Shown here one piece after another: positions 4,636-59,746 of a DNA stretch of 64,000 nucleotides. Numbering within the stretch: position 1 is the first letter of the stretch; each line of letters opens with the position of its first letter. The stretch covers positions 9,867 to 73,866 of the forward strand of contig CAIPHT010000005.1 in NCBI GenBank assembly GCA_903864935.1, written 5' to 3'. Source of the DNA: Candidatus Vogelbacteria bacterium. GTDB lineage: Bacteria > Patescibacteriota > Minisyncoccia > Phycocordibacterales > XYD1-FULL-46-19. The translations under genes were made by a program, and so were the position numbers. The notes below the pieces were generated by a model. It searched no databases, was not told where the DNA came from, and saw nothing but the letters and a program-made list of their open reading frames with translations.

Positions 4636-4825
4636 CGGAGTGTAGTGTAACGGTAACATCCACGACGCGCCCCCACACCTTTTTAACGGGGCATAGTGTA
4701 ACGGTAACATCCACGATTCGGGTTCGTGGGACTCTGGGTTCGAGTCCCAGTGCCCCGACAGGAACGTAAAAAAGGTGTGGGGGTGAAGGTTCGTGGGACT
4801 CAGGGTTCGAATCCCTGCACTCCGA
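4636..4825 (+). tRNA. tRNA-Pro-like gene whose anticodon loop holds a 125-nt insertion (4666-4790) containing a complete tRNA-Pro(CGG)
   Basis: 5' part CGGAGTG-TA-GTGTAACGGTAACATC-CCACGA (4636-4665) and 3' part TCGTGG-GACT-CAGGGTTCGAATCCCTG-CACTCCG-A (4791-4825). Acceptor is perfectly complementary and the D-arm is identical to the nested tRNA. The insert has 10-bp perfect inverted repeats CCCCCACACC (4670-4679) and GGTGTGGGGG (4774-4783). Uncertain whether functional, spliced or a pseudo-tRNA. Confidence 0.5.
4687..4758 (+). tRNA. tRNA-Pro(CGG), nested inside the outer tRNA-Pro-like gene
   Basis: Acceptor CGGGGCA/TGCCCCG, anticodon stem CCACGA/TCGTGG, loop TTCGGGT (anticodon CGG), T-arm CTGGG-TTCGAGT-CCCAG, discriminator A. 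Confidence 0.8.
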
Positions 4826-4840
4826 CAAAGCGAAGCATTT

Positions 4841-5016
4841 GGCGGAGTGAGCGAGCCAACTGCTTGGCTTGCGTCTGGGATTCGAACAGCGGAGTGATAT
4901 TTTTTCAGCAGAAAAAATTAGCGAGCTGGTGCCTAGACAAAGTTTTGCGACGGCAAAACTTTAGTCGAAGGAGAATCCCTGCACCGTAGTAGTGATATTT
5001 CCTGCACTCCGACAAA
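4841..5016 (+). repeat. tRNA-flank mimic element copy B (~175 nt), immediately 3' of the outer tRNA-Pro-like gene
   Basis: Homologous to the minus-strand segment 9201-9354. It starts with a GGCGGAGTG acceptor-like 5' end and contains three hairpins: GCGAGCCAA-ctgc-TTGGCTTGC; TTTTTTC-agca-GAAAAAA; AAAGTTTTG-cgacggc-CAAAACTTT. It ends with GAATCCCTGCAC...TCCGACAAA, a direct repeat of the tRNA 3' end plus 4 nt of flank. Confidence 0.5.
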
Positions 5017-5599: not shown

Positions 5600-5926
5600 T
5601 TACTCTCTTAGAACGAGAGTCTCTTGATATTCCAAGAAGTGTTTCCAACACTCCTCAGCCGATGGTTCGTATCCGAGCTTTAGTCCGGCGTAGTAGCGGT
5701 TGAGTTCCTCTTGGCCTTGTTCGTAGGCGACCCTGAACATGGCGGCGTAACCCATGCTGATGTACCAGAAGACAACTTCGTTGTTCGTCAGTTTTCTGTC
5801 TCCCATCTCTTCGGCGAGTTTGCGATAGCGCATGGCGTCAACGTATTGGGTAATGTCCCGCTCTACCCTTTTCATTCGCTCTTCTTCGGTGAGCTCAGGA
5901 ACACCTTCGACATTTGGGTCTATCAT
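5600..5926 (-). CDS. hypothetical protein (108 aa), GC-richer than its neighbours
   Basis: RBS AAGGAG 7 nt upstream of the ATG at 5926, clean ORF, terminator downstream. No recognisable domain. Confidence 0.5.
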   Translation of the reverse strand: MIDPNVEGVPELTEEERMKRVERDITQYVDAMRYRKLAEEMGDRKLTNNEVVFWYISMGYAAMFRVAYEQGQEELNRYYAGLKLGYEPSAEECWKHFLEYQETLVLRE

Positions 5927-6066
5927 TTCGGCACTCCTTTCTTGGTTATGACTGATGAGACCAAAAATCTGCCCTTAGTCTAACACCAACCTTTAATTTA
6001 ACAAGCATCAAAAAACTCACCATCAATTGGCGAGTTTTTTGATTTACGAAAATTAATATCTTCTAA

Positions 6067-6321
6067 TTATTTCTTGCCCCACTTCTTCTTGTAAGCATAG
6101 AAGTAGTAGAGGATGTCCAAGATGCCCAAGGTGTTAACCAAGAGAAGCACCACGAACCAAACCTTAGCGCCACTACGAGCAGCGCGCCACATGGCCAAAC
6201 CTTTCCAAAGAAGGTTCCAGGCAATGAGGACAATTAATAAAGTGGTTAGACCAGCGGTGCTGGCGATAACCGTACCCCATGTTGATGGAGGTAACGTACC
6301 CAATTTATAAATGCTTTCCAT
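6067..6321 (-). CDS. small membrane protein with a PLDc_N-like motif (cardiolipin synthase N-terminal-like)
   Basis: Two TM helices and the motif KVWFVVLLLVNTLGILDILYYFYAYKKK, matching the PLD-nuclease N-terminal small-protein family (W..vllL....G...Y...). Confidence 0.55.
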   Translation of the reverse strand: MESIYKLGTLPPSTWGTVIASTAGLTTLLIVLIAWNLLWKGLAMWRAARSGAKVWFVVLLLVNTLGILDILYYFYAYKKKWGKK

Positions 6322-6386
6322 GTTTTGAATTATACCATATGGTTCAGAAATTTGACGAGACTTTTATCCACATCTATCATTAACTC

Positions 6387-7259
6387 ATGTTAACGCAAAT
6401 CCAAAAAGAATTAAGAAAAGTGGCCGACAAAGACAAGGCAAAAATTTTGGCGCGGTTTTTCAAAACTGGGAAAGGCGAGTATGGTGAGGGTGATAAATTC
6501 TTAGGGGTGGTGGTGCCGGAGCAAAGACGGATTGCAAAAGAATATTTGCGAGACGAGAACGTTGTGAGAAGTCGTTTTTCAAGTGAGCCCGAAATGCGAC
6601 TTCGCACAATGTTCGCTGACCTTCAAAATCTTTTGCGAAGCGAGTATCACGAAGACAGGTTAACCGCCCTTTTGGTTTTAGTGGAGCTGTATCGACTTAC
6701 TCAAAAAAATGACCCTACTTCGCCGAGGCTTCGCAGGGTTAATTCGCGCAAGATTTTTTTGTTTTACATAAAAAATCTTGCGCGAACTTGCCCCGTGAGA
6801 GCGAAGCGATTTTACGGGGTTAACAATTGGGACTTAGTAGATTTAAGTGCCCCTAATATTGTCGGCGATTATCTGTTTACCCTGAGTGAAGTCGAAGGGT
6901 TGAATAATTTTTCTAAAATTCAAATAAAAACATTTTTGCTTAAATTAGCTAAGTCAAAAAATCTTTGGTCGCGTCGGGTGGCGGTGCTTGCCACCTTCCC
7001 CTTTATCAAAAATAAAAAGTTCGAAGAAATTTTAGAGTTGACCAAGTTCTTACTTTTCGAACAAAAAGAAAATCATGACCTAATGCACAAGGCTCTTGGT
7101 TGGGCGCTCCGCGAAGTGGGGAAGAGGGAGTTGGGAGTTTTGAGGAACTTCCTTGATCACTATGCGGGAGTCTTGCCTCGGACCACTCTTCGTTACTCAA
7201 TTGAGAGATTGCCTCAAAAGGAGAGGCTCGAGTATCTAGCTAGGCCCAAAATCGCTTGA
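6387..7259 (+). CDS. DNA alkylation repair protein (AlkD-like HEAT-repeat glycosylase family) carrying in-frame palindromic inserts
   Basis: N-terminus MLTQIQKELRKVADKDKAKILARFFKTGKGEYGEGDKFLGVVVPEQRRIAKEY and later ...NNWDLVD..., ...LWSRRVAVLA... are typical of the DNA_alkylation repair family. Extra segments VRSRFSSEPEMRLRT and DPTSPRLRRVNSRK.../...ARTCPVRAKRFYGV coincide with DNA palindromes. Confidence 0.7.
   Translation: MLTQIQKELRKVADKDKAKILARFFKTGKGEYGEGDKFLGVVVPEQRRIAKEYLRDENVVRSRFSSEPEMRLRTMFADLQNLLRSEYHEDRLTALLVLVELYRLTQKNDPTSPRLRRVNSRKIFLFYIKNLARTCPVRAKRFYGVNNWDLVDLSAPNIVGDYLFTLSEVEGLNNFSKIQIKTFLLKLAKSKNLWSRRVAVLATFPFIKNKKFEEILELTKFLLFEQKENHDLMHKALGWALREVGKRELGVLRNFLDHYAGVLPRTTLRYSIERLPQKERLEYLARPKIA
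6564..6607. repeat. 44-nt palindromic element GTGAGAAGTCGTTTTTCAAGTGAGCCCGAAATGCGACTTCGCAC inserted in-frame in the AlkD-like CDS
   Basis: Nucleotide-identical to 45454-45497 inside comEC. Imperfect hairpin (11-bp outer stem plus inner TTTC/GAAA). Encodes VRSRFSSEPEMRLRT in both hosts. Confidence 0.8.
6716..6820. repeat. composite nested palindrome inside the AlkD-like CDS (17-bp perfect stem TTCGCGCAAGATTTTTT/AAAAAATCTTGCGCGAA plus outer CTTCGC..GCGAAG arms)
   Basis: Read directly from the sequence. It stays in-frame (...NDPTSPRLRRVNSRKIFLFYIKNLARTCPVRAKRFYGV...). Confidence 0.6.
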
Positions 7260-7338
7260 GATATAAGGGTTACACGGTTATGGTCGTTCTGCGTCACAAC
7301 TTCTTGGCGAAGATTATTAAAAGAGTATAATTATCTAT

Positions 7339-8241
7339 ATGAAAAAATTAATTAATCTTAAGAAACTTCTTCGACAATCTCGAGCGGTTTATCGAGCGAA
7401 GTTTCCTGTTCTCTTTGGGCTCCTTGTTTTGCCCTTCACCCTCTTTATTATTAGTCCGCTCTTGGTTCAAAGTTTTGATTTTCTTTATCTGCCACTCTCG
7501 CTCTTGCTCACAATCCTGGGCCTCTTCTTGTTGCTCTGGGGTGGGACAGCGGCCATTATTGTTATTCGCGACCGTGATGAGAATCTCTCAATCAGAGAAG
7601 CACTTGAGCGAAGTAAGGGAAAAATTTGGCCCCTTCTCTGGGTCTCAATTATTGTTGGCTTCATTGTTGTCGGGGCTTCAATTTTATTTTTAATCCCTGG
7701 TTTAATTTTGGCCGTCTATTTTATCTTTGCCAAAATTATTGTCGTGGCTGAAGATGAGACTGGTCTCGTCGCTTTGGCCAAGAGCCGTGAATATGTTCGA
7801 GATTATTTCTGGCCAGTTCTTGGACGTTACTTGGTGATTGTTATTCTTACTACAATTGTTGTTGCTATTTTTGCTGGCATTATCTCAGCCCTCAGCCAAG
7901 CCCTTATCTCTGTCTGGGGGCGAGCGGTGAGCGAGGCATTAGTGATTATCTTGCAAGCCTTAGTAAATGCAATTATTTTTCCTTTTGTTTTGTCGGCAAC
8001 TTATTTGCTTTATGAGAATGTGAGAGAAGTTAAGGGTGAGGTGTCTGTTGAAGAAAAAAATAATCAAGCGTGGATTTATCTTGGCGTGGGTTTGGCCGGT
8101 TGGATTTTCTTAGCGGTCTTAATTGTTTTGGCGATTGTCATTCTCACGACCGCTATTGGTGGTTATGTTCTTGGTGCCTTTGCTTCGAATATTTTTAATA
8201 GCCAAGCGTTAATTAAAGCGACGAGTACTCTCGCACAATAA
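7339..8241 (+). CDS. polytopic membrane protein, hypothetical
   Basis: About 6 hydrophobic helices; no catalytic motif recognised. Confidence 0.5.
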   Translation: MKKLINLKKLLRQSRAVYRAKFPVLFGLLVLPFTLFIISPLLVQSFDFLYLPLSLLLTILGLFLLLWGGTAAIIVIRDRDENLSIREALERSKGKIWPLLWVSIIVGFIVVGASILFLIPGLILAVYFIFAKIIVVAEDETGLVALAKSREYVRDYFWPVLGRYLVIVILTTIVVAIFAGIISALSQALISVWGRAVSEALVIILQALVNAIIFPFVLSATYLLYENVREVKGEVSVEEKNNQAWIYLGVGLAGWIFLAVLIVLAIVILTTAIGGYVLGAFASNIFNSQALIKATSTLAQ

Positions 8242-9200: not shown

Positions 9201-9354
9201 TGCGAGGGATGGGAGAAAACCGTCGCCCGCGACTCAAGTCTCGCCGTCGCTCAACTTGGTCTGGGCACCAGCTCGCTAGTTTTTGTTGGTACAAAAACAT
9301 CGCTCCGCTGTTCGACTCTCCACGCAAGCCAAGCAGTTGGCTTGCTCATCCCGC
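9201..9354 (-). repeat. tRNA-flank mimic element copy A, immediately 3' of tRNA-Gly(TCC)
   Basis: Read on the minus strand: GCGGGAT (the tRNA-Gly acceptor 5' strand), then hairpin GCAAGCCAA-ctgc-TTGGCTTGC, then GTGGAGAGTCGAAC (antisense to the tRNA-Gly T-arm), then AGCGGAGCGAT, then hairpin GTTTTTGT-acca-ACAAAAAC, then TAGCGAGCTGGTGCCCAGAC, then a hairpin with loop CGACGGC, ending CTCCCATCCCTCGCA (a near-copy of the tRNA-Gly 3' end). Core is homologous to 4841-4975. Confidence 0.5.
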
Positions 9355-9356
9355 AA

Positions 9357-9380
9357 AAGAGCCTCCTTGTGGAGGCTCTT
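9357..9380. terminator. bidirectional terminator hairpin AGAGCCTCC-ttgt-GGAGGCTCT flanked by A/T tracts, between tRNA-Gly and element A
   Basis: Perfect 9-bp stem with T-runs on both strands. Confidence 0.55.
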
Positions 9381-9386
9381 TTTCTG

Positions 9387-9457
9387 TGCGGGATGGGAGA
9401 GTCGAACTCCCGACCTCAGTTTGGAAAACTGATATTTTACCGCTAAACTAATCCCGC
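9387..9457 (-). tRNA. tRNA-Gly(TCC)
   Basis: Minus strand: GCGGGAT-TA-GTTTAGCGGTAAAAT-A-TCAGT-TTTCCAA-ACTGA-GGTC-GGGAG-TTCGACT-CTCCC-ATCCCGC-A; anticodon TCC. Confidence 0.8.
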
Positions 9458-9596: not shown

Positions 9597-10133
9597 CTAA
9601 CGGTGACGGAAACGTTGCTCGTATTTGCTCAGGTCATGGGAGCAAGAGAAACTCTTTCCTGTGTCTGGGTCCTGCCAGAAGTCTTCTGCAAATGCAAGTC
9701 CCCAGTCCTTGCCTGGCTTAGACCCCTCTTCTCTGTTCCAGCGAGGAAGAGCTTGTTTGAAAAAGACTCTCTTCCCACCAACAAGGAATCTCCCCATGCT
9801 GACAATCATCTCGCAAATCGGGTCGGAATGTTGTGTCGAAGTGAAGAGACCCACTCCTTTAACGCAAGGCTTGCTCAGGGCCTCCAACATCACGAGCAGG
9901 CCACTGGGCACAAGCTTCGGCGGGCCGGTAGTGACAGACTTGTTGATGAAGGTTTTGTCCGGGGGCATGTAGAGGTCGGTCATCACCCAGTCGAAGTCTT
10001 GTTTGTCCAGCAGGTCCACCGCTTCTTTGTAGCCCGTCGCGGAGACAATGTCGTAGGCTTCGGGGGAGATTGTCTCCCTGGTAGACTCGATATTCTCTGG
10101 GCTGTCGTCAACAATCAGAATGCGCTCTCTCAT
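9597..10133 (-). CDS. response-regulator receiver (REC)-like domain protein with an uncharacterised C-terminal domain
   Basis: MRERILIVDDSPEN...YDIVSATGYKEAVDLL...FDWVMTDLYMP shows a CheY-like beta1-alpha1-beta2-alpha2-beta3 pattern with the DD pair and a phospho-acceptor Asp. The ATG at 10133 is chosen because it abuts the upstream gene's stop. The C-terminal ~100 aa are unknown. No histidine kinase nearby. Confidence 0.45.
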   Translation of the reverse strand: MRERILIVDDSPENIESTRETISPEAYDIVSATGYKEAVDLLDKQDFDWVMTDLYMPPDKTFINKSVTTGPPKLVPSGLLVMLEALSKPCVKGVGLFTSTQHSDPICEMIVSMGRFLVGGKRVFFKQALPRWNREEGSKPGKDWGLAFAEDFWQDPDTGKSFSCSHDLSKYEQRFRHR

Positions 10134-17960: not shown

Positions 17961-18133
17961 CCTTCTTACAGAAAATCCCGCACGGCGCGAAGCGCCGTGC
18001 GGGATTCCTTTTTTTGTTCGTAACTATGTCATAGATTGACATAAACAATGTTATTAAGTAGGGTTGGTTTAGAAATCGGTAGGCTTAAGCTGGAATAGGC
18101 CAGCAAGGAGTAGACCGTAGAAAGGACATTGTC

Positions 18134-18874: not shown

Positions 18875-18971
18875 TTTTTGTCGCCCCGAGGAGCGTCCCG
18901 CTCCTCGGGGCGTTCTTTGTTTAACGAAAAGCCCCTGGCTCGCGAAGCGAACCAGAGGCTTTATCTTGTTT

Positions 18972-23617: not shown

Positions 23618-24718
23618 TTACTTTAATCCTTCAAGAAATTCAAAAACTTTTTCGTTTACAATTAGACCGGCGGCGTAGGAGCGAAGGCGGTCTTCGGGGA
23701 CATCTTTATATTGATTCTTGAGATAATCTACTTCGTTCTTTAATTCATCTTCAGGTGCAGTGATTCCTTCTAAGTGGGCGATCTCGTTTAAGATGAGACC
23801 GAAGGCGACACGCTCACGGGCTTGCTTCTCCCAGGAGTCGCGCAATTCCTCACGAGTTTTCTTAAGATGAGTGAGATAATCTTCGAAGTCCATACCCATA
23901 TAGCCAATTTGCCCTTCCATCTCGGCCAGCATCTTGTCTTTCTCGTTCTCGATGAAGACTTTCGCCATCTTGATCTCAGACTTGGCAATCACGCCCTCGA
24001 TAATCCCAACTCGTCTCTTGTCCTTGGCTTTATTAGCCTTCTCGAGAGCCAGATTTTCTTTAATTTTGGCTTTTAGCTCATCAAGAGTCTCAAATTGGCC
24101 GAGACTTTTGGCAAAATCATCATTAAGCTCGATTTCATGTCCCGCTTCCGCAGAATGCTCCGGCGAGGCGAGGTCACATTTCTCGCCCTCTTTGTGCTCG
24201 TGGTGGCTATGCTCGGCGCTCGAACGGCTTTTGCGTAATTCTTCGAGGACGTTGGTAATTTCTTCTTCTTTGACGGCCAAAGGCGAGTCCTCAAGTGAGC
24301 CCGAGGTCTCTCCTTGGGTCGTCACGGTGTTCTTGGCAATCGCTTTATAATCCCCAATTTTTACCTCCGGCATAATAGCGGTATTGATCTTGAAGCCGAG
24401 CGGGTTGCCGGGAGCGAGCTTGGTAATAGTAATCTCGGGGCGGCCAAGCGCCATAATTTTATTGTCGGTAATTATCTGCAAGTACATCTCGGAGATTGCC
24501 TGCTGAGCCATTTCCCAGAGAATTTTTTCTTCACCCAACTTCTCAACAAGAACGTTCTCGGGGATGTGGCCAGGGCGGAAGCCGTCTAACTTAGCATCTT
24601 GGCCCAGAGTTTTGAGGGCTTTCTCTCGATAGGGGGCAAATTCGGTGACGGCTAATTCGCCAGTGATTTCGAGTTCACCTTCTTCAGCCGGATTTATTTT
24701 AAGATCGGTAATTGTCAT
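23618..24718 (-). CDS. tig: trigger factor (short form, 366 aa)
   Basis: N-terminal ribosome-binding domain with the GFRPGHIP signature (cf. GFRKGKVP), followed by a PPIase-like and C-terminal helical region. Near clpP, as in the conserved tig-clpP neighbourhood. Confidence 0.7.
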   Translation of the reverse strand: MTITDLKINPAEEGELEITGELAVTEFAPYREKALKTLGQDAKLDGFRPGHIPENVLVEKLGEEKILWEMAQQAISEMYLQIITDNKIMALGRPEITITKLAPGNPLGFKINTAIMPEVKIGDYKAIAKNTVTTQGETSGSLEDSPLAVKEEEITNVLEELRKSRSSAEHSHHEHKEGEKCDLASPEHSAEAGHEIELNDDFAKSLGQFETLDELKAKIKENLALEKANKAKDKRRVGIIEGVIAKSEIKMAKVFIENEKDKMLAEMEGQIGYMGMDFEDYLTHLKKTREELRDSWEKQARERVAFGLILNEIAHLEGITAPEDELKNEVDYLKNQYKDVPEDRLRSYAAGLIVNEKVFEFLEGLK

Positions 24719-35132: not shown

Positions 35133-35175
35133 CATATATGGTAACATTTTTTACAATTGTAAAAAATGTTACCAA
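35133..35175. promoter_or_regulatory. 36-bp perfect palindrome TGGTAACATTTTTTACAATTGTAAAAAATGTTACCA (copy 1, downstream of the PaaX-like gene)
   Basis: Perfect dyad symmetry. A second copy at 35737-35774 differs by a single centre base. Confidence 0.6.
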
Positions 35176-35194: not shown

Positions 35195-35713
35195 TTAAAC
35201 AATTTCTTTCTCTTTGACCTCAAAAAATTTGAGGTGGGGGAGAAGGTCCATTGTTTTTAGATGCTCAATAAATTCCTTGGGTAGGGGAGCGGGTCCAAGC
35301 CAAACGCTTTTTTGTAGTAGCTTAAATCCGAGCCCAACCAGTTCTACTCTTAGCCAGTAACGACTTCTTTTCTTGTCTTCTGGGATATCGAAAGCAATGA
35401 TAACTTTTTTGTCCGTTTTGTTCCCTTTAATTGGTGTAGTGTGATTTTTGTATAATTTTTGGCTCTTAAATTTTCTTAGCCCTTCAATTGTCAGACTCCA
35501 ATTTTGCCCATTTTCTTTAAGTAGCCCGTTTTCCTTGAGACGATATAGTGTTGATTTTAATACTTTTTCTTGGGCATATTTCGCTCTTCTTTGCGTTGAT
35601 ACTTTTTCCATCTCCTCTTCTATTCGAGGATCTCCCATCATGTGTAACCGCAAATTACGGTAATTACCTGGATGATTAGATAAAAAGAGAAATATTTGGT
35701 CGGTTAGTTTCAT
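35195..35713 (-). CDS. PaaX-like transcriptional regulator (wHTH + PaaX-middle-domain-like), truncated form
   Basis: N-terminal wHTH (...KVLKSTLYRLKENGLLKENGQNWSLTIEGLRKF). Then DKKVIIAFDIPEDKKRSRYWLRVELVGLGFKLLQKSVWLGP, which resembles the PaaX central domain (GKWLLLLSEGLDKS...QLIWQGFGALAPSLMASP). Confidence 0.55.
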   Translation of the reverse strand: MKLTDQIFLFLSNHPGNYRNLRLHMMGDPRIEEEMEKVSTQRRAKYAQEKVLKSTLYRLKENGLLKENGQNWSLTIEGLRKFKSQKLYKNHTTPIKGNKTDKKVIIAFDIPEDKKRSRYWLRVELVGLGFKLLQKSVWLGPAPLPKEFIEHLKTMDLLPHLKFFEVKEKEIV

Positions 35714-35736
35714 TATTATTATCTATTTTAACAAAT

Positions 35737-35774
35737 GGTAACATTTTTTACAATCGTAAAAAATGTTACCAGAA
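35737..35774. promoter_or_regulatory. 36-bp palindrome copy 2 in the divergent intergenic region between the PaaX-like gene and tpiA (putative operator)
   Basis: GGTAACATTTTTTACAATCGTAAAAAATGTTACC, 60 nt upstream of the tpiA ATG. Confidence 0.55.
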
Positions 35775-39236: not shown

Positions 39237-39807
39237 TCTTTAAAATAATTTTTTTAGAATTACAAAGCCGCCAGAGGTCCTAAGACATGGCGGCAAACGG
39301 GGCCCCTCGAGGGGGCAAAAGCAGTGAGCAACGAAATCCAGACGCATGAACTTCGTTGCCTAATCTAAATAAAAATTGAAAGTTAGGGCACTTTCGTGGC
39401 GTCGTCCGTGGGCCTACTACTCCGAGCGATTCGGAGTGCAACTACGCGAGCTCTCGCAGTTGCTACGGCCTTTCTTTATTTATAGAACAGAGAAGATTGC
39501 TGGGGTGGTCTCATCGCTAACTCGCAATTGGGCGAGCGAGGGGTCAGCAAACTTCTTAGAGGAGCATCTAAGTTAAGTATATCATAACCACAAAATTTGT
39601 CAAGGATAAAAATAGAAACCGCCAGGTCTCGCAATGCGGTGGGACCCCAAGGGGGTGGTCGCGTTACGAAAAACTGGCGGCGGTAGCCGGTGGCATCCGG
39701 CCACGCGGGGAGCATTCAGATAGAGCTTGGGCCCCAATGCCCTTCTTTGTGGCATCCCTCTGCCCTTTAGTGTGTCATAACTTCAAAATTCGTCAAGTAT
39801 AAAAACA

Positions 39808-39843
39808 CCGCCCAGGTTTCGGACTCACTTGAGGCCTGGGCGG
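39808..39843. repeat. GC-rich hairpin of the CCGCCCAGG...CCTGGGCGG family (3' of the HIT gene)
   Basis: CCGCCCAGGTTTCGGACTCACTTGAGGCCTGGGCGG. Related copies at 48441-48476, 54947-54986 and 59543-59580. Confidence 0.6.
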
Positions 39844-39859
39844 GGAGAGGAGAAATGGC

Positions 39860-45093: not shown

Positions 45094-46641
45094 ATGAGCA
45101 TGGCTAATTTGAGAAAAAATTTAGCCCTGCTCATATTTGGTTTTTTGAGCGGTGTCACCTTGGGTGGTCTTATCTCTTGGGCTTTGCCGTGGGTGGGGCT
45201 ATTTTTGGTTCTCGCTCTGGCTTTCTCGGCCCTGTTTCTCAAACTTAAGCGCCAAAAGCTTTTTTTAGCTCTCGCCATAATTTTTGTTGGAGTGATTCTC
45301 GGCCTGATTAGATTTAACTTTAGCCAAAAAACTGACCAAGCTTTGCCCGATTGCTCATCTTCGTCTAGGCCTTGCCTAGCCATGGTTGTCGCTGACCCAG
45401 ACCGGCGAGATGCTTCAACGAGGTTGGTGATTGAGCTTATGGAGTCCGAGTTTGTGAGAAGTCGTTTTTCAAGTGAGCCCGAAATGCGACTTCGCACGAA
45501 CTCGAGAGTTCTAGCTATTATTGACAACTTCACCGACTACTCTTACGGCGACAAAGTGGAGCTCGTTGGTAAAGTAGAAAAGCCTCAGAACTTTTTGACT
45601 GAACAAAACACCGTCTTCGATTATCAAAATTATTTATTAGTCCGCGGCATAGAACAAACAGTTTATCAGCCCAAACTTAAAATCATTTCTCGGGGTAACG
45701 GTTCTACTGTTAAGGCTGGTCTCTATTCTTTAAAAAATAATTTCTTAGGCAATCTTCGTCGTACTTTGCCCGAGCCGGCTGCCTCGTTAGCTGGCGGTCT
45801 CATCTTGGGGGACAAGGGCGGCTTAGGTAAGAAGACTGAAGATGAGTTTAGGCAAGCCGGGGTCTCGCACATTATTGTCCTCTCTGGCTATAACATTACG
45901 ATTGTGGCCGAGAGTGTGCTCTATTTCTTCGCTTGGCTCACACCGGCTTTCTCCTGGCTCCTTTCTATTGGTTCAATCTTTCTTTTTGTCCTGATGACCG
46001 GTGGCGAAGCTGCGGCCGTGCGCTCGGCGGTGATGGGCGCCATCGCGCTCATAGCAAGGCGTTATGGTCGCACCTATGATGCGGGAGTGGCCTTAATTGT
46101 TGCCGGCTTCTTGATGATAGTTTGGAATCCAAGGCTTCTCGCCTTCGACCTCGGCTTTCAACTCTCCTTCCTCGCCACATTGGGTTTGATATATTTGTCA
46201 CCCGTGGTGGAGAAGCTTTTGGATATCGGTTCGGGATTTCTGCGAAGTCGCATCTGGCTACGCGAGAAACGACTTCTCAAAAATCCCGAGCTTTTGAGAA
46301 GTTGGACTTCAAGAGAGCCCGAAGTCCAACTTCGCGGAAGCGGGGAGAAAAAGTTTAACAAGGATGTTTGGTCCGGTCTCAAAGAGCTCATCTGCACCAC
46401 CACCGGCGCCCAACTCGCCGTCTACCCTTGGCTCCTCTATAAAATGGGCAACGCTTCGCTCGTTGGTTTCATCTCCAACATCTTCATTCTCCCACCTATT
46501 CCCATTGCCATGTTCTTAAGTTTCTTAACGGGTATTACTGGTTTTATTTCCTCCTTCCTATCTCTTCTCATCAGTTATCCTACTTATTTCCTCCTCGCTT
46601 ATATCCTCAAAATGGCTCATATCTTTGCGAGTTTGTTATAA
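45094..46641 (+). CDS. comEC: ComEC/Rec2 competence protein, membrane channel part (DUF4131 + Competence domain), with in-frame palindromic inserts
   Basis: Multi-TM with IIVLSGYNITIVAES (competence domain signature). Contains the 44-nt palindrome at 45454-45497 and a related one at 46297-46335. Confidence 0.8.
   Translation: MSMANLRKNLALLIFGFLSGVTLGGLISWALPWVGLFLVLALAFSALFLKLKRQKLFLALAIIFVGVILGLIRFNFSQKTDQALPDCSSSSRPCLAMVVADPDRRDASTRLVIELMESEFVRSRFSSEPEMRLRTNSRVLAIIDNFTDYSYGDKVELVGKVEKPQNFLTEQNTVFDYQNYLLVRGIEQTVYQPKLKIISRGNGSTVKAGLYSLKNNFLGNLRRTLPEPAASLAGGLILGDKGGLGKKTEDEFRQAGVSHIIVLSGYNITIVAESVLYFFAWLTPAFSWLLSIGSIFLFVLMTGGEAAAVRSAVMGAIALIARRYGRTYDAGVALIVAGFLMIVWNPRLLAFDLGFQLSFLATLGLIYLSPVVEKLLDIGSGFLRSRIWLREKRLLKNPELLRSWTSREPEVQLRGSGEKKFNKDVWSGLKELICTTTGAQLAVYPWLLYKMGNASLVGFISNIFILPPIPIAMFLSFLTGITGFISSFLSLLISYPTYFLLAYILKMAHIFASLL
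45454..45497. repeat. 44-nt palindromic element, identical to 6564-6607, in-frame inside comEC
   Basis: Exact 44/44 nt identity. Encodes VRSRFSSEPEMRLRT in the same frame as in the AlkD-like gene. Flanks form extra complementary arms (CGAGTT / AACTCG). Confidence 0.8.
46297..46335. repeat. diverged member of the same palindromic element family inside comEC (GAGAAGTTGGACTTCAAGAGAGCCCGAAGTCCAACTTCGC)
   Basis: Shares the GAGAAGT...TTCAAG.GAGCCCGAA...ACTTCGC framework, with a compensatory inner stem TGGACTTC/GAAGTCCA. Confidence 0.6.
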
Positions 46642-48425: not shown

Positions 48426-48440
48426 AAATTCACCTAAAAA

Positions 48441-48476
48441 CCCGCCAGGCCTCGGGCTCACTTGAGGCCTGGCGGG
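48441..48476. repeat. GC-rich hairpin of the CCGCCAGG...CCTGGCGG family (terminator for the S2P gene)
   Basis: CCCGCCAGGCCTCGGGCTCACTTGAGGCCTGGCGGG. Confidence 0.6.
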
Positions 48477-48499
48477 GGAGAAAGGGGGAGTTTTTGCCC

Positions 48500-54003: not shown

Positions 54004-54412
54004 GCTCCGCATCGGCCATTTTGCCATTGTTCTCGCTTTGCTCGAACATAAATGATGGCAAAAACCGGCTGGCCGTAGCTACGCGAGGTTGTTTAACTGA
54101 AGAAGTCTCGCTTAACTGCAAACCGCCACTGAGAGGCGAAGCCTCTCAGTGGCGGTTTGCTAGAAACTCGAAACCCTACCAATCGGTAGGGTTTCTCGGA
54201 GGCCGGAGCCACTAATACATAAATTGTAATACTGGGCATTTGAAAGTCAAATCAAAAAAAAGGCCCCCGATGCAGACGTGTCTGCATAAGGGTCCTCTCC
54301 GTAGTGATGTGTATATTATACCCCCGGGTATTAAAAAGTCAAGAAATGGAAAACCCGCCGGCGGCAAGCGGGAAATCCGTTTGCGCGCGCGGCGGGTGTG
54401 TGGGCAGTGAAC

Positions 54413-54930: not shown

Positions 54931-54946
54931 TGGCTCTACATTCAGA

Positions 54947-54986
54947 CCCCGCCCAGGTCTCGGGCGACCTTGAGGCCTGGGCGGGG
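54947..54986. repeat. GC-rich hairpin CCCCGCCCAGGTCTCGGGCGACCTTGAGGCCTGGGCGGGG between divergent promoters
   Basis: Same family as 39808, 48441 and 59543. Confidence 0.6.
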
Positions 54987-55003
54987 GAAAGGAGGGGTAA
55001 ATA

Positions 55004-59511: not shown

Positions 59512-59542
59512 AGTATTGAGATTGTCCTGAAATTAAGAAAAC

Positions 59543-59580
59543 CGCCCAGACCTCTAGTTTCCCGAGGTCTGGGCGGTTTT
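59543..59580 (+). terminator. intrinsic terminator of the CCGCCCAG hairpin family (CCGCCCAGACCTC...GAGGTCTGGGCGG + TTTT)
   Basis: 13-bp stem plus a T-tract after the surface-protein gene. Confidence 0.65.
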
Positions 59581-59616
59581 TGCTTGCCCCGTGGGGGTGA
59601 AGTCCCTCTACGGGGT

Positions 59617-59644
59617 TTGACATTATCCCCAATTTTGCTATGCT
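59617..59644 (+). promoter_or_regulatory. promoter TTGACA-N16(..TGC)-TATGCT re-starting transcription for rpsS...rplE, followed by a leader hairpin GTCCGCC-gact-GGCGGAC
   Basis: Hexamers at 59617-59622 and 59639-59644, with about 100 nt of structured leader before the rpsS ATG. Confidence 0.5.
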
Positions 59645-59746
59645 ATCCCTAGCTCAAATAAGGGGCGTCTGTCCGCCGACTGGCGGACTAAATTTTGCTC
59701 GTCAGGGTGTGCCGGTAGGCCACTTCAACGGGCGTTTAAAATATTT

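Follow-up and report, generated by a model that had tools for sequence, protein, structure and literature searches.

A perfect coding palindrome between short in-frame hairpin repeats in an AlkD-like gene of a Candidatus Vogelbacteria bacterium: a probable composite of independent parts

An AlkD-like DNA glycosylase gene from a Candidatus Vogelbacteria bacterium (NCBI GenBank assembly GCA_903864935.1, contig CAIPHT010000005.1) carries a conspicuous palindromic segment, centered on a perfect 17-bp stem, at positions 6712-6821 of the stretch of DNA that we analyzed (64,000 nucleotides [nt], positions 9,867 to 73,866 of the contig, hereafter the window). The comparisons presented here make it likely that this segment is a composite of three evolutionarily independent parts within a working gene. 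The center (6743-6786) would be the coding sequence of a conserved host helix, and the modules on either side of it, B and C, would be unrelated short GC-rich repeats, similar to repetitive extragenic palindromic (REP) hairpins, inserted in the adjoining loops. Homologous recombination among related lineages would have joined a B-bearing tract to a C-bearing tract and so produced an apparent nested hairpin. A preliminary description of this DNA had proposed a single nested element that either mimicked or replaced host sequence; that proposal is not borne out, because the stem is host helix and the modules segregate in orthologues. A striking intragenic hairpin need not be an inserted element: the best stem here is the host's own helix-coding sequence, apparently perfected by a DNA-level process, and the true insertions would be the weaker flanks.

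The host gene is an open reading frame (ORF) whose product matches Pfam family PF08713 (DNA alkylation repair enzyme, AlkD family) with an E value of 1.8e-45 and a score of 155.7 bits against a cut-off of 21. The match covers all positions of the profile (1-213 of 213) and is stretched across 271 query residues, so that about 58 residues are extra. The palindromic stretch lies in frame within this ORF, as had been claimed, and the preliminary translation of it was exact. AlkD sequences in the PDB are matched at E = 4e-05. An AlphaFold model built from the alignment of relatives (predicted local distance difference test score [pLDDT] 84, predicted template modeling score [pTM] 0.81) has the all-helical, HEAT-like fold superposable on solved AlkD, with 5clb_A as the best Foldseek match (E = 1.1e-05, template modeling score 0.80 normalized to the target). 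The modeled helices include residues 88-106, 120-132 (pLDDT of about 90), and 156-168; the pLDDT falls below 50 solely in insert B (residues 109-116), insert C (135-139), and insert D (172-174). The preliminary description had suggested modeling the fold to see whether the inserts fall in loops, and in the model all of them do, in loops of low confidence.

The sequence also keeps the residues on which AlkD activity would depend. NNWDLVD aligns with WWDSVD, and GWALRE with GWVLRE, of the Bacillus cereus enzyme, whose catalytic Trp-x3-Asp motif and second Trp we take to be W109, D113, and W187; the corresponding motif and Trp are present in the alignment, where W148, D149, D152, and W239 are invariant across 31 homologues. 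The gene is probably functional, since its catalytic Trp and Asp residues are intact. A promoter-like site (6352-6380) precedes its start codon, and the order DUF5652 - AlkD - UPF0259 is conserved in other genomes. Terminator-like sites are absent from 5900-7500 on either strand, including the whole AlkD-like gene, and no GC-rich stem followed by a U-run of the kind that marks an intrinsic terminator or attenuator is found. Relatives number in the thousands in the protein database, the closest coming from Paceibacterota/Patescibacteria metagenomes and ranging from 226 to 303 amino acids. A protein scan of genome contigs gave, among the matches listed, homologues at most 47% identical to the query, none with inserts. 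In an alignment of the query with 31 relatives, the query has four blocks of extra residues, A, B, C, and D, which agrees with the preliminary observation that the gene carries several repeats. The inserts would be translated and tolerated. We considered bypass during translation, or splicing, of the inserts and saw no need for either, all of them being multiples of three and free of stop codons.

The central stem is the strongest of the palindromes in the segment and is host sequence. Its arms (Table 1) are perfectly complementary over 17 bp, which is far beyond chance: folded as single-stranded DNA, 6741-6788 reaches -20.3 kcal/mol (z = -7.65), an energy that none of 200 shuffles equaled, and the longest perfect stem in 30 first-order Markov simulations of the window measured 9-12 bp. 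Strong hairpins in the window number 45, mostly intergenic, and this is the strongest intragenic one. The 17-bp arms had been correctly described beforehand; the loop proves to be 10 nt long rather than 11. Stem and loop encode residues 119-134 (NSRKIFLFYIKNLART), which include helix 120-132 of the AlkD fold. The peptide that separates B from C, SRKIFLFYIKNLAR, matches a conserved KKxIFxFYLKNxxR of the 31 homologues with no gaps, I123, F124, F126, and Y127 invariant or nearly so, and for this reason we assign residues 119-134 to the host. FYIKNL, as first noted, belongs to this conserved motif, and the suggestion that homologues might reveal an ordinary AlkD segment with no extra residues is true for the central 16 codons and untrue for the flanks. 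The preliminary description had recommended a genome search for the 17-nt arm; within the window, such a search returned only the two arms themselves with up to three mismatches allowed. The stem exists in part because the conserved peptide is self-complementary at the codon level: K-I-F (AAG ATT TTT) is the reverse complement of K-N-L (AAA AAT CTT), that is, AAGATTTTT versus AAAAATCTT. Both perfect arms encode conserved residues, SRKIF and KNLAR, of helix 120-132, and the stem is a coding palindrome.

Table 1. Positions in the window of the AlkD-like gene, its palindromic modules, and further copies of modules A and C.
Feature	Position	Strand	Description
AlkD-like (PF08713, HEAT-like repeat) DNA glycosylase gene	6387..7259	+	290 amino acids, intact ORF; hosts modules A-D and the stem
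Module A, 46 nt (the 'first' element of the preliminary description)	6562..6607	+	Terminal inverted repeats GTGAGAAGTCG/CGACTTCGCAC; encodes VRSRFSSEPEMRLRT
Module B, 28 nt, GC-rich	6712..6739	+	ACCCT-ACTTCGC-CGAG-GCTTCGC-AGGGT; encodes (D)PTSPRLRRV, residues 109-118
5' arm of perfect stem	6743..6759	+	TTCGCGCAAGATTTTTT; codons N119-S-R-K-I-F-L125; host coding sequence
Loop, 10 nt	6760..6769	+	TGTTTTACAT; encodes conserved (L)FY(I)
3' arm of perfect stem	6770..6786	+	AAAAAATCTTGCGCGAA; codons I128-K-N-L-A-R-T134; host coding sequence
Module C, 35 nt	6787..6821	+	CTTG-CCCCGT-G-AGAGC-GAA-GCGAT-TT-T-ACGGGG-TT; encodes TCPVRAKRFYG(V), residues 134-145
Module D	6879..6900	+	ACCCT-GAGTGAAGTCGA-AGGGT; encodes TLSEVEG; loop after helix 156-168
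Identical A-type copy, 46 nt	45452..45497	+	In frame in ComEC-like gene 45094-46641
Second C-family copy	59583..59617	+	Intergenic, upstream of ribosomal-protein operon

The flanking modules have a different character. Module C is a net in-frame insertion of 33 nt (11 residues, TCPVRAKRFYG, 134-144) that directly precedes the catalytic NNWDLVD motif, and among 120 homologues it occurs at this site in just two (P0001 and P0004). Its membership in a dispersed repeat family follows from copies elsewhere. A metagenome scan with the pattern CTTGCCCCGTG-N5-GAAG-N7-ACGGGGTT, by which the outer stem CCCCGT/ACGGGG is fixed, matched 17 contigs with 11 distinct sequences. The five inner pairs, free to vary, covary (ATTGC/GCAAT, GTCGC/GCGAC, ACCGC/GCGGT, ATAAC/GTTAT) around a GAA loop closed by C-G: across the 11 distinct sequences 91.7% of cells are paired, compared with 82.9% after shuffling (none of 500 shuffles as high), 13 cells are compensatory, and slid controls pair at 39-51%. 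A G·T pair at one position outside the search pattern is invariant in the family, and in the AlkD copy the inner stem is degraded. The copies are mostly intergenic, several lying 3-9 nt past stop codons or adjoining promoters. Others are in frame, in varied frames and orientations, within a tyrosine recombinase (L103, catalytic domain), DnaG (L098, linker), and TsaD (L089, C-terminal tail). The second copy in the window has a terminator hairpin (59538-59580) on one side and a TTGACA-N16-TATGCT promoter-like site on the other. We also observed that the copies in L090/L096, in L101, and at 59583-59650 of the window end exactly where a sigma-70-like -35 box begins (…ACGGGGTTGACA-N17-TATGCT); because the ends abut -35 boxes, the repeat may supply or border promoters.

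Module B is an in-frame insertion of about 10 residues in the loop between helices 88-106 and 120-132, and its opposite strand holds two GCGAAG(C) units. It is found in three homologues (P0003, P0005, and P0014) and missing from most, and the window holds no second copy. An intergenic copy, CCCCGCGAAGCTTTAGCGAAGTGGGG, occurs in an unrelated genome of 37% GC (L018); its reverse complement reads NDPTSLKLRGA, and it keeps the core of B, with an outer stem that is a compensatory CCCC/GGGG where the B module of orthologue L002 has CCCT/AGGG. By these sequence likenesses B is probably the same kind of dispersed repeat as C. We considered whether TCGCG, a part of the 5' arm, belongs to module B, and rejected this: orthologue L003 has TCGCG without B, and the L018 copy of B is without TCGCG. 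Module D, whose block covers about residues 167-178 (SEVEGLNNFSKI), has the outer stem ACCCT/AGGGT in common with B and resembles ACCCTTCGACAAGCTCAGGGT repeats of L100 and L103. Rfam at its gathering threshold found only three tRNAs and matched none of the modules. The GC-GAA-GC core of C recurs in both halves of B (opposite strand) and in window hairpins 17974-18006 and 54118-54160. These two belong to a set of long, perfect, GC-rich intergenic hairpins (17974-18006, 18882-18912, and 54118-54160; stems of 14-20 bp) that have no terminator-type T-run, and two of the set have the GAA triloop closed by C-G, with the GC-GAA-GC core as in B and C.

Insertion is frequent at several sites of this protein family. 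Of the 120 homologues, 54 have at least five extra residues at site A, 25 at site B, and 32 at site D, and only two carry the insert at site C; at site B other lineages have different repeat-like peptides (…MDSRLRGNDK…, …AYCNTP…). Such frequent and varied inserts at A, B, and D mark the AlkD loops as permissive hot spots. The repeat copies that survive would be those that are multiples of three, free of stops, and placed in surface loops, and B and C may persist in the gene for just that reason.

Evidence for independence comes from the DNA of orthologues, for which we compared eight loci (L001-L004, L006, L007, L105, and L106) with the window. The window has B, the perfect 17-bp extended stem, and C. 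L002 has B and a perfect 18-bp stem without C; L004 likewise has B and no C, its stem having decayed to 16 of 19 pairs; L003 has the stem (16 pairs, one mismatch) with neither B nor C; and L001 has C with neither B nor the extended stem. L006 has a different short insert at the B site and neither extended stem nor C, and all three are absent from L007, L105, and L106. Since B, stem, and C are found separately, they do not form one nested element, and the juxtaposition of B and C is, among these sequences, specific to the window allele. The AlkD genes of the window and L001 are 69% identical overall, and their third-codon identity is 0.73-0.93 over residues 122-170 and 0.3-0.5 elsewhere. By the same measure the window is closest to L003 over residues 6-45 and 87-127, to L002 over 98-123, and to L001 over 122-170, from which it follows that the AlkD-like gene is a recombination mosaic. 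Module C, identical at 35 of 35 positions in L001 (blastn-short), would owe that identity to inheritance within a shared recombination tract. Independent insertion of C at one site in two lineages was dropped as an explanation, given the third-codon identity that points to such a tract.

The same orthologues indicate how the stem became perfect. L105 has TCT CGA ATC (S-R-I) on the 3' side and AAC AAG AAA CAA on the 5' side, without an extended stem, and by this comparison its K-N-L/I-S-R-I form of the 3' arm is the ancestral one. In L002 the perfect stem (18/18) has a 5' arm, GAT TCG CGA AAG, that is the exact reverse complement of the 3' CTT TCG CGA ATC, which makes the TCGCG of the 5' arm look derived, copied in inverted form from the 3' arm. 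Relative to L002, the window has a paired C:G in place of A:T, CGA becoming CGC on one arm and TCG becoming GCG (Ser to Ala) on the other, and L003 and L004 exhibit unpaired decay of the stem. The arm changes thus amount, in few sequences, to one compensatory pair (window versus L002) and one templated 5' arm (versus L105). Most likely the perfect stem arose by hairpin-templated conversion: an ancestral K-I-F…K-N-L quasi-palindrome would have been perfected and lengthened in one subclade as the older 3' arm was copied, exactly and in inverted form, into the 5' arm. We propose intrastrand template switching on the hairpin during replication as the likeliest route because six or seven simultaneous changes mirror the other arm, the signature of quasi-palindrome correction; the GATTCGCGAAAG conversion would have proceeded in this way from an ancestral, L105-like sequence.

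Several competing explanations bear on the same facts. That the whole segment is one nested, composite mobile palindrome of about 105 nt, comparable to a MITE (miniature inverted-repeat transposable element) or a Rickettsia palindromic element (RPE) and inserted in frame with a core that mimics or replaced the host helix, is very unlikely, and we regard it as largely refuted. RNAfold does pair B with C outside the central stem, giving one nested hairpin (-53.2 kcal/mol, z = -7.4), as the outer complementary arms of the preliminary description would require, and the GCGAAG core lies in opposite orientations in B and C. Shuffling B or C seldom restores the observed energy (21/500 and 6/500, respectively). 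Folded separately, however, B, center, and C sum to a nearly equal -50.3 kcal/mol, and the minus strand forms three separate hairpins at -50.9 kcal/mol, so the gain from outer B-C pairing is small and only marginally above chance. The weak complementarity arises because both modules end in CCC/GGG and the GCGAAG core runs in opposite directions in the two. Moreover, C occurs by itself at 59583 and in 16 further contigs, with neither B nor the central sequence near any of these copies, and the arm that is unique in the window belongs to a core that aligns residue for residue with insert-free homologues. A decaying pseudogene or an assembly artifact, with the palindromes as misassembly or unconstrained junk, is equally hard to credit. 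Four or five repeat modules in an 873-nt gene taken from a metagenome assembly invite the suspicion, and the preliminary description had left open whether the gene was functional or decaying. Yet the frame is open, without stops and with every insert a multiple of three; the catalytic and core residues (W148, D152, and W239 among them) are invariant and the AlkD-like model is confident; the synteny is kept; and the same modules recur in independent assemblies (JGI, NCBI, ENA, and Logan). The functional alternative is the one that these data favor.

A perfect stem might instead be kept by selection for a hairpin function, for example the slowing of translation or protection of the transcript by an mRNA structure, a DNA cruciform, or a protein-binding site, with the flanking repeats contributing to the selected structure. 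An A:T pair of L002 is a compensatory C:G in the window, at the price of a Ser/Ala change, and this speaks for such selection, as do the very stable fold and the identity of about 90% that B and the center have between the window and L002/L004, compared with about 70% gene-wide. Raised identity, however, also fits recombination tracts. L001, L006, L007, L105, and L106 keep the gene and its synteny without the extended stem, which is itself decaying in L004, and neither a terminator-like tail nor an Rfam family is found. We consider selection of this kind unlikely. The composite account has weak points of its own. Template switching is deduced from only about nine orthologue DNAs and one compensatory pair, and the same arm pattern would be expected if selection acted on a hairpin in the mRNA or DNA. 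The outer B-C pairing is slightly above chance (p of about 0.01-0.04), so a weak structural link between the modules is possible. Module B folds weakly by itself (z = -0.5) and has one copy outside AlkD orthologues, so that it is a less certain mobile element than C. Neither the B nor the C junctions have a direct target-site duplication, no transposase or other mobilizing enzyme was identified in the partly annotated 64-kb window, and the copy counts within this genome refer to that window.

Module A, which covers about residues 56-72 of the AlkD-like protein (VRSRFSSEPEMRL), extends the picture to a second gene. The ComEC-like competence gene at 45094-46641 contains three in-frame A-type repeats, encoding VRSRFSSEPEMRLRT and LRSRIWLREKRLLKNPELLRSWTSREPEVQLR: the identical copy of Table 1, a copy of 76% identity at 46292-46337, and an inverted variant at 46241-46279. 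In orthologues, variant versions of A occupy the same AlkD site in both orientations. Elsewhere in the window, GC-rich hairpins at 24283-24309, 39803-39848, 48436-48481, and 54944-54989 have differing, covarying stems and the loop motif (T)CAAGTGAGCCCGA common to A-type repeats; one lies within the trigger-factor gene and three are intergenic, two of these between convergent genes.

Other features of the window are recorded here as observations in their own right. Inverted copies of about 135 nt, 80-89% identical, at 4838-4974 (+) and 9223-9358 (-), bracket a 4.2-kb segment with the AlkD-like gene. The first lies just downstream of tRNA-Pro(cgg) (4687-4759, +), the second just downstream of tRNA-Gly(tcc) (9386-9457, -). 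The copies match no Rfam family at the gathering threshold; they could represent a small RNA that is not annotated, or mark where an invertible or mobile segment ends. The halves of tRNA-Pro are duplicated within 4636-4827, the 5' half at 4636-4665/4687-4716 (90%) and the 3' half at 4721-4760/4788-4827 (85%), in the nested order 5'a-[5'b-3'b]-3'a, like a complete tRNA in a tRNA-like shell. Near-identical, 36-nt, AT-rich perfect palindromes, TGGTAACATTTTTTAC-aatt-GTAAAAAATGTTACCA, at 35139-35174 and 35736-35771, flank a 172-residue ORF at 35195-35713 (-).

These findings would extend in-frame REP- and RPE-like repeats to the Paceibacteria of the Candidate Phyla Radiation (CPR), whose small genomes are assumed to be streamlined, and in which AlkD-type loop sites appear to be hit repeatedly. 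They also carry a warning for annotators, since the 226-303 residue length range of the family would be due mostly to peptides derived from repeats and not to functional domains. A broader proposal is possible though doubtful: that the Paceibacteria possess an undescribed class of very short hairpin repeats with a GC-GAA-GC core and without GTAG/CGTC tags, which, together with hairpin-templated conversion and frequent recombination, repeatedly rewrites protein loops (AlkD, ComEC, recombinase, and primase) and even perfects palindromes in conserved coding helices. If this is true, protein-loop variation would have a DNA-hairpin-driven source throughout the lineage, one with a mobilizing mechanism of its own.

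Several known systems offer points of comparison. REPs of 20-40 nt that lie inside genes have been recorded in several phyla, often in replication and repair genes, and the REP superfamilies carry a GTAG or CGTC tetranucleotide tag at one end; in-frame RPEs are documented as well (Di Nocera et al. 2013, PMC3733652). The modules here resemble those REPs as GC-rich imperfect palindromes of 20-40 nt, dispersed, and mostly intergenic just downstream of genes (PMC3733652). G·T pairs occur in the stems, and a minority of copies are in frame in genes of known function, here AlkD, ComEC, DnaG, and a tyrosine recombinase. The description as a short, GC-rich, dispersed, mostly extragenic imperfect palindrome fits C, and B with one extra copy only. 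Unlike REPs, none of A, B, C, and D has a GTAG/CGTC tag at the stem foot; GTAG/GTAA does occur in some C copies, but internally, in the opposite-strand stem. C also departs from REPs in its two-tier stem with the invariant G·T and a C-G-closed GAA triloop, and the host is a Paceibacteria/CPR bacterium. RPEs, reportedly described by Ogata and colleagues in 2000 and cited in PMC3733652 and PMC6649704, are likewise selfish palindromic repeats in frame in many unrelated functional genes, tolerated on protein surfaces and loops. In-frame repeated palindromes in functional ORFs are present here too (A-D in AlkD, A in ComEC, and C in the recombinase and DnaG). RPE-1, by contrast, is about 100-150 bp long and the modules here 28-46 nt, with no similarity to its consensus and no Rfam or other match; the phylum differs, and the best hairpin here is host sequence rather than repeat. 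B and C are also far smaller than MITEs, which have terminal inverted repeats and direct target-site duplications and span 70-300 bp or more, and lack the duplication. The d(GCGAAGC) DNA mini-hairpin, said to be extraordinarily stable (Hirao and colleagues, 1992 and 1994), has the GC-GAA-GC core of the repeats here, a likeness of sequence.

For the stem, the closest comparisons are with mutational processes. Quasi-palindrome templated mutation by intrastrand template switching, reportedly described by Ripley in 1982 and by Dutra and Lovett in 2006, produces clustered simultaneous substitutions that perfect an inverted repeat as one arm copies the other; the pattern here is alike, and differs in being deduced from orthologue comparison only. 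Intrastrand template switching at quasi-palindromes is also discussed for the coding palindromes of Nematomorpha mitochondria, which include many repeats of up to 284 bp and for which template switching or conversion has been proposed as the process that maintains them (Mikhailov et al. 2019, PMC6649704). Those palindromes and the AlkD stem are both perfect intragenic inverted repeats whose arms encode conserved residues with codon-to-codon pairing, and both are gained and lost dynamically among relatives. The AlkD stem differs in being one case of 17-18 bp in a bacterial gene. Our literature search found no description of such repeats in Patescibacteria; the inserts nevertheless resemble known cases in other bacteria and are not a new kind of element.

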